A DNA stretch of 64,000 bases from Escherichia coli (GTDB taxonomy: Bacteria > Pseudomonadota > Gammaproteobacteria > Enterobacterales > Enterobacteriaceae), in the NCBI RefSeq assembly GCF_046105845.1, contig NZ_CP151004.1. One strand, given 5' to 3'. The position numbers and the translations under genes were made by a program. How positions within the stretch are numbered: the stretch's first letter is position 1; the number at the start of each line of letters is the position of its first letter. This document shows, piece after piece, positions 36,971 to 38,654 of the stretch. Below the pieces are notes generated by a model. That model saw only the letters and a list, made by a program, of their open reading frames with translations. It did no database searches and was not told the origin of the DNA.

Positions 36971-36983
36971 CCAGGAGGTTTAT

Positions 36984-38654
36984 TTGCAATTTGACTACAT
37001 CATTATTGGTGCCGGCTCAGCCGGCAACGTTCTCGCTACCCGTCTGACTGAAGATCCGAACACAACCGTGCTGCTGCTTGAAGCAGGCGGCCCGGACTAT
37101 CGCTTTGACTTTCGCACCCAGATGCCCGCCGCGCTGGCGTTCCCGTTACAGGGTAAACGCTATAACTGGGCCTATGAGACGGAACCGGAACCGTTTATGA
37201 ACAACCGTCGCATGGAGTGCGGACGCGGTAAAGGTCTGGGCGGATCGTCACTGATCAACGGCATGTGCTACATCCGTGGCAATGCGCTGGATCTCGATAA
37301 CTGGGCGCAAGAACCCGGTCTGGAGAACTGGAGCTACCTCGACTGCCTGCCCTACTACCGCAAGGCCGAGACGCGCGATGTGGGCGAGAACGACTACCAC
37401 GGCGGCGACGGCCCGGTGAGCGTCACCACCTCCAAACCCGGCGTCAATCCGCTGTTTGAAGCGATGATTGAAGCGGGCGTGCAGGCGGGCTACCCGCGCA
37501 CGGACGATCTCAACGGTTATCAGCAGGAAGGTTTTGGCCCGATGGATCGCACCGTCACGCCGCAGGGCCGTCGCGCCAGCACCGCGCGTGGCTATCTCGA
37601 TCAGGCCAAATCGCGCCCTAACCTGACCATTCGTACTCACGCCATGACCGATCACATCATTTTTGACGGCAAACGCGCGGTGGGCGTCGAGTGGCTGGAA
37701 GGCGACAGCACCATTCCGACCCGCGCGGCGGCGAATAAAGAAGTGCTGTTATGTGCAGGCGCGATTGCTTCACCGCAGATCCTGCAACGCTCCGGCGTCG
37801 GCAACGCTGGACTGCTGGCGGAGTTTGATATTCCGCTGGTGCATGAATTACCTGGCGTCGGCGAAAATCTTCAGGATCACCTGGAGATGTATCTGCAATA
37901 TGAGTGCAAAGAACCGGTTTCCCTCTACCCTGCCCTGCAGTGGTGGAATCAGCCGAAAATCGGTGCGGAGTGGCTGTTTGGCGGCACCGGCGTTGGTGCC
38001 AGCAACCACTTTGAAGCTGGCGGATTTATTCGCAGCCGTGAGGAATTTACGTGGCCGAATATTCAGTACCATTTCCTGCCAGTGGCGATTAACTATAACG
38101 GCTCGAACGCAGTGAAAGAGCACGGCTTCCAGTGCCACGTCGGATCGATGCGCTCGCCAAGCCGTGGGCATGTGCGGATTAAATCCCGCGACCCGCACCA
38201 GCATCCGGGAATTCTGTTTAACTACATGTCGCACGAGCAGGACTGGCAGGAGTTCCGCGACGCAATTCGCATCACCCGCGAGATCATGCATCAACCCGCG
38301 CTGGATCAATACCGTGGCCGCGAAATCAGCCCCGGCGCGGAATGTCAGACGGATGAGCAGCTCGATGAGTTCGTGCGTAACCACGCCGAAACCGCGTTTC
38401 ATCCGTGCGGTACCTGCAAAATGGGTTATGACGAGATGGCAGTGGTTGACGCCGAAGGCCGCGTACACGGGCTGGAAGGCCTGCGCGTGGTGGATGCGTC
38501 AATTATGCCGCAAATTATCACCGGCAATTTGAACGCTACGACTATTATGATTGGCGAGAAAATGGCGGATATGATTCGCGGGAAGGATGCGTTGCCGAGG
38601 AGCACGGCGGGATATTATGTGGCAAATGGGATGCCGGTGAGAGCGAAAAAATGA
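36984..38654 (+). CDS. betA: Choline dehydrogenase (GMC oxidoreductase)
   Basis: Recognised BetA N-terminus (M)[14 protein letters not shown] aligns with a TTG at 36984, preceded by AGGAGG at 36973-36978 with 5 nt spacing; gives 556 aa. The ORF track extends to another TTG at 36939. Confidence 0.88.

Follow-up and report, generated by a model that had tools for sequence, protein, structure and literature searches.

betA of Escherichia coli is very probably translated from an ancestral TTG codon positioned by a strong Shine–Dalgarno sequence

The betA gene in a stretch of 64,000 nucleotides of E. coli DNA (hereafter the window, meaning this whole stretch) is, with high confidence, translated from the TTG codon at positions 36984 to 36986, where initiation is positioned by a strong Shine–Dalgarno (SD) sequence. 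We hold this start codon to be ancestral and to be fixed both in E. coli and in a large group of Enterobacteriaceae. A preliminary description of the same DNA had proposed that betA initiates at a TTG behind a consensus SD, and this proposal is borne out by sequence geometry, by conservation and by reference annotation. The TTG start of betA is also already known, in that it is annotated in K-12, is found species-wide and is ordinary. The outcome is mostly one of annotation hygiene: betA has been annotated from the correct codon, and no variant of this start is present in the window.

Results

The betA start site in the window

The junction between betB and betA in the window reads TCC ATA TTC TGA cc AGGAGG tttat TTG CAA TTT GAC TAC ATC ATT ATT GGT GCC GGC TCA GCC GGC AAC. 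The AGGAGG hexamer (36973-36978) begins 2 nt past the betB stop codon and is followed by a 5-nt spacer, TTTAT (36979-36983), such that the TTG lies 13 nt from the betB stop. The match to the anti-SD sequence runs one base beyond the hexamer, to position 36979, and the duplex predicted to form with ACCUCCUUA has an energy of −11.0 kcal/mol. The hexamer, the 5-nt spacing and the TTG at 36984 lie exactly where the preliminary description had placed them. Coordinates of these and the other features discussed are collected in Table 1.

Table 1. Features of the bet locus in the window
Feature	Position	Strand	Remarks
betT (choline transporter)	32735..34768	-	Divergently transcribed
betI (TetR-type repressor), first gene of betIBA	34897..35484	+	ATG start
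betB (betaine-aldehyde dehydrogenase)	35498..36970	+	ATG start 13 nt past the betI stop
Upstream in-frame TTG inside betB	36939..36941	+	Rejected alternative start
betB stop codon TGA	36968..36970	+	TAA in K-12, ST2747 and CP062824
Shine–Dalgarno sequence AGGAGGT	36973..36979	+	7-nt complement of the 16S rRNA 3′ end, 4-5 nt 5′ of the TTG
betA TTG initiation codon	36984..36986	+	Homologous to the annotated starts in K-12 b0311, ST2747 and NZ_CP062824.1
betA (choline dehydrogenase), 556 aa plus stop	36984..38654	+	TIGR01810; length equal to K-12 b0311, 1671 nt
GAGSAG dinucleotide (FAD)-binding motif, residues 9-14	37008..37025	+	Sets the latest possible start of a functional protein

The reading frame of betA contains an in-frame TGA at 36924 and is open from 36927 onward. 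Between this TGA and position 36984 there is no in-frame ATG or GTG, a result that agrees with the earlier statement that no in-frame ATG separates the betB stop from the TTG and holds over the longer interval as well. The only other in-frame start-type codon before 36984 is a TTG at 36939, which is located within betB. On the 3′ side, the first in-frame ATG is found at 37122 (Met47), beyond the GAGSAG motif. Indeed, the region presents what is typical of a UUG-initiated gene, namely an in-frame TTG that has an SD at a functional distance and is the best start that the open frame offers. The N-terminal peptide predicted for a protein initiated at this TTG is (f)Met-QFDYIIIGAGSAGNVLATR.

The AGGAGG hexamer as such is not enriched in the window, with 7 sites on both strands compared with 15.8 expected from shuffled sequences. 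Its significance comes from its position and its conservation, not from its mere presence. Folding of the RNA corresponding to positions 36944 to 37023 yields a minimum free energy of −13.9 kcal/mol, compared with a shuffled mean of −15.6 kcal/mol (z = 0.58), and the SD and the betA start are unpaired in the centroid fold. Over this same interval, no regulatory RNA structure beyond that seen in shuffled controls was found to cover the betA ribosome-binding site.

The compact junction also bears on the route by which ribosomes would reach the TTG. Short intercistronic spacers favor translational coupling, and it is possible, if rather unlikely, that initiation at the TTG is due for the most part to ribosomes coming directly from termination at the betB stop (termination-reinitiation) rather than to free 30S subunits recruited through the SD. 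The 13-nt gap and the start of the SD only 2 nt past the betB stop speak for reinitiation, as do the equal distance at the betI-betB junction and the retention of a gap of 13 to 14 nt in the clade of species that share the TTG. Against it stands the expectation that an SD of −11 kcal/mol in an unstructured region should recruit ribosomes unaided.

A start 15 codons earlier, at the in-frame TTG within betB (36939), would give an N-terminally extended BetA. This codon is the first of the start type after the in-frame stop, in a frame that is open from 36927, and most loci of Escherichia and of the Enterobacter type have an equivalent. However, its conservation is accounted for by the conserved coding sequence of betB (GTT GAG), and the SD duplex available to it is weak (−3.8 kcal/mol versus −11.0 kcal/mol at 36984). 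A stop at −45 closes the frame in Klebsiella and Raoultella, and the codon is missing from three loci of the Citrobacter amalonaticus group. Moreover, it is used by no annotation (K-12, ST2747 or NZ_CP062824.1), and the extension that it would encode has no counterpart in profile models of BetA. We consider initiation at this upstream codon very improbable, and the TTG at 36984 is retained as the start.

Searches of the literature returned no statement about the start codon of betA or the N terminus of its product, and in text searches the name “betA” collides with “beta”. Likewise, neither an N-terminal peptide of BetA nor an initiation-profiling record was found, betA being absent from the TetRP supplement and TRAINSPOTTER supplement rows listed. 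Osmotic stress and choline are needed for induction of the bet genes, and this requirement may be the reason that these genes are missing from standard data sets.

The BetA protein and the bet locus

The product of betA scores 1023.7 bits against the NCBIfam betA equivalog model TIGR01810, which has a cut-off of 732.1, and positions 1 to 532 of this profile align to BetA residues 4 to 537. The PRK02106 profile aligns from residue 1. These models start 0 to 3 residues from the start encoded by the TTG, and they show that the BetA N terminus given in the preliminary description was correct. An N-terminal GxGxxG FAD-binding motif follows directly after the start, at residues 4 to 15, and the pattern DY(I/V)(I/V)(I/V)GAG is found in 82 of 82 loci compared. 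The role of the GAGSAG-type motif is established for GMC oxidoreductases. The oxidation of choline to betaine aldehyde by the BetA of the window is expected from its identity of ~97.5% to K-12 BetA.

The chance that translation begins at the first in-frame ATG (37122), leaving the TTG region untranslated, is negligible: its only merit is to be the first ATG in the betA frame, but a start at Met47 would remove the GAGSAG FAD-binding fold, and the 46 residues before it exhibit protein-level conservation that reaches Pseudomonas and Moraxella, and the betA profile extends over them from residue 4 onward.

As in the annotated E. coli loci of ST2747, K-12 and NZ_CP062824.1, the open reading frames of the window place betT in divergent orientation to betI-betB-betA, with betA as the last cistron of the betIBA operon. 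The betI-betB junction (window positions 35482-35500; TAA CCGAGGAGACGTG ATG) also has a stop-to-start distance of 13 nt, combines GAGGAG with an ATG and begins CC(G/A)(A)GGAG. The 13-nt architecture shared by the betI-betB and betB-betA junctions suggests a coupling design that is repeated across the operon.

The TTG start across E. coli

The reference annotation of K-12 MG1655 (NC_000913.3) places betA (b0311) on the minus strand at 325577..327247, starting from the homologous TTG in the context TAA CCAGGAGGTTTAT TTG CAATTTGAC. The K-12 gene (protein NP_414845.1) resembles that of the window in having its TTG 13 nt past betB, in encoding 556 amino acids and in the order of the betT and betIBA genes. 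The two sequences agree in all 42 bases from CCAGGAGG to the end of the start codon (CCAGGAGGTTTATTTGCAATTTGACTACATCATTATTGGTGC), whereas the betB stop differs (TAA in K-12, TGA in the window) and BetA is ~97.5% identical at the amino acid level. The PGAP annotations of ST2747 and NZ_CP062824.1 also begin betA at the homologous TTG.

The preliminary description had proposed an alignment to betA from other E. coli, which we carried out as a census of 5426 complete E. coli genomes with a 42-mer query covering the SD, the TTG and the first nine codons. Matches were obtained for 5183 records in 5179 of these genomes, and in 5176 of the records the match is 100% identical, TTG included. Versions of the 42-mer carrying ATG or GTG have no exact match in the complete E. 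coli genomes, and a 49-mer test agreed. The seven remaining records mismatch the 42-mer somewhere, but a lone substitution giving ATG or GTG, with all other bases intact, is excluded.

These counts refute the suggestion, made in the preliminary description, of a start-codon polymorphism among strains. Its alternative suggestion, that this strain uses a near-cognate start, holds as far as the use of TTG is concerned; the restriction to this strain does not hold, given that the TTG is common to the species and to several genera. There is practically no chance that other E. coli have an ATG here and that the TTG arose by mutation in this strain or by a sequencing error, an idea favored only by the general predominance of ATG starts and contradicted by the TTG of K-12, ST2747, CP062824, nearly all E. 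coli records and 33 other species representatives, as well as by the lack of an exact ATG or GTG match in E. coli.

Several further observations concern the bet locus in this collection. No match to the betB-betA junction was obtained in 247 of the 5426 complete genomes, in which the locus is absent or deleted, and 10 of the junction matches sit on plasmids rather than chromosomes. The complete E. coli genome closest to the window, NZ_CP062824.1, is 98.9% identical over window positions 30000 to 42000, and only 1866 of 5247 matching records span at least 80% of this interval. Thus, the window comes from a lineage that is not closely represented in the collection. The flanks of the bet genes vary, with ipbA/hyxR located 3′ of betA in NZ_CP062824.1 and ykgH in K-12. 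The betA gene of ST2747 (positions 3135-4823 of locus L001) has 1689 nt and encodes 562 amino acids, compared with 1671 nt and 556 amino acids in the window and in K-12. The start of the ST2747 gene is unchanged, and the difference in length is therefore a C-terminal polymorphism.

TTG and ATG starts in other genera

One genome per GTDB species was scanned, which yielded 80 loci, and from each of these we extracted the codon homologous to that for BetA residue 1. A TTG occupies this position in 33 species representatives other than E. coli. These belong to Enterobacter (many species), Pseudocitrobacter, Lelliottia, Leclercia, Huaxiibacter and Raoultella, as well as to the Klebsiella oxytoca/michiganensis/grimontii group and the Citrobacter amalonaticus/sedlakii group. 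All orthologs of the TTG type carry a GGAGG core with a predicted SD duplex energy of −11.0 kcal/mol, and the distance from the betB stop to the start stays at 13 to 14 nt throughout. The spacers vary among these loci (tttat, ttttt, cattt, catgt, tttca and tctca), as does the second codon (CAA, CAG or CAT), and nearby wobble positions also differ.

In ten of the loci (L022-L027, L029, L031, L033 and L035), from Klebsiella, Raoultella, Enterobacter sp. JUb54 and three members of the Citrobacter amalonaticus group, this TTG is the sole ATG, GTG or TTG codon in the interval that runs from the in-frame stop on the 5′ side to the FAD motif. The fact that no other such codon is available in these ten loci demonstrates independently that the TTG is the start.

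An ATG is found at the homologous codon in Pantoea, Cedecea, Kosakonia cowanii, Tatumella, Rosenbergiella, Trabulsiella and Pluralibacter. In all Moraxella and most Pseudomonas loci the ATG lies one or two codons upstream, and a few Pseudomonas have it at the homologous codon. The enterobacterial betA genes initiated by ATG resemble that of the window in the enzyme that they encode and in the betB-betA order, with betA beginning from a few to ~30 nt past the betB stop. The N termini of the ATG-initiated orthologs, including those of Pseudomonas and Moraxella, lie within 0 to 2 residues of that of the TTG-type BetA. In contrast to the uniform −11.0 kcal/mol of the TTG loci, the SD energies of the ATG-initiated enterobacterial loci range from −5.2 to −12.1 kcal/mol, and the second codon of the ATG-initiated orthologs is usually GAA (Glu) rather than CAA, CAG or CAT.

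In a neighbor-joining tree of BetA, constructed without bootstrap, the deep branches are all ATG, and TTG is confined to one derived group within which ATG is nested twice, in Trabulsiella and in Pluralibacter. The presence of ATG in these two genera within TTG lineages indicates that TTG is not strictly required. By these sequence comparisons, the TTG of betA is old, having arisen from ATG and having been retained through the divergence of several genera.

The species-representative scan returned no Escherichia locus, and Pseudocitrobacter vendiensis (97% amino acid identity) and P. faecalis (95%) gave its best matches (L003 and L004). The junction of P. vendiensis is the same as that of K-12, and E. 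coli nests inside Pseudocitrobacter in the BetA tree. This pattern hints either that the bet locus was transferred horizontally or that the collection has a gap.

Constraint on the TTG and its possible role

A TTG start typically lowers the efficiency of initiation, which the preliminary description had noted and which is standard knowledge. To this can be added an estimate of how constrained the codon is, for which changes were counted by parsimony on a nucleotide neighbor-joining tree of 39 sequences of the TTG-containing group. The first base of the start codon undergoes 2 changes, compared with a mean of 7.5 at 190 fourfold sites in betA, and 11.6% of these sites change as little (empirical fraction 0.12). 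This result is suggestive of constraint on the first T of the start codon, but it is not significant.

UUG is one of the three standard start codons of E. coli, used by ~3% of genes, and AUG, GUG and UUG have been grouped together at 10 to 100% of AUG initiation (Hecht et al., bioRxiv 10.1101/063800). As with other UUG-initiated E. coli genes such as cdsA (PMC11448367), the start of betA is of the kind that is read by the initiator tRNA and has a lower intrinsic efficiency than AUG; within this class, betA is an ordinary member with nothing distinctive. GUG and UUG starts tend to be offset by stronger SD sequences (Belinky et al. 2017, PMC5622118). The uniformly strong SD beside the TTG of betA is consistent with such compensation for a weak start, in loci that are not phylogenetically independent.

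The events at the junction can be outlined as follows. The TTG is very probably read by the initiator tRNA as formyl-methionine, with the 30S subunit placed by the near-perfect SD within a 13-nt spacer for which no significant structure is predicted. The TTG would be expected to lower BetA output compared with an ATG, and this weakness might be offset in part by the strong SD and by the nearness of the betB stop, through coupling or reinitiation. BetA synthesis would then be set at a moderate level and would probably be coupled in part to the translation of betB. BetB removes betaine aldehyde, which is a toxic intermediate. By this reasoning BetA may be held at or below the level of BetB, which would limit the build-up of betaine aldehyde.

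We can only tentatively extend this reasoning to evolution. Selection may have kept the TTG in Escherichia, Enterobacter, Klebsiella and Citrobacter so that less BetA than BetB is made and betaine aldehyde does not build up, with the uniformly strong SD and the fixed 13-nt distance co-adapted to it, a proposal that we regard as doubtful. If the start codon does exert a selected control of stoichiometry, then a change from TTG to ATG should be deleterious in high-osmolarity medium containing choline. Selection of the TTG/SD pairing for the balance of BetA and BetB is a small, testable question. There is a practical point as well, in that the weak start codon of native betA is accompanied by a strong SD, which is relevant to heterologous expression and to the tuning of betIBA.

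A variant stop codon in betB

The betB stop codon is the sole unusual base in the betB-betA junction of the window. A 49-mer that seeds only with TGA at this position has no match in the 5426 complete E. coli genomes, and the codon is a rare or private TAA-to-TGA variant that precedes the betA SD by 2 nt. Were this stop read through, translation in the betB frame would continue over the betA start for seven more sense codons and end at the TGA at 36992-36994.
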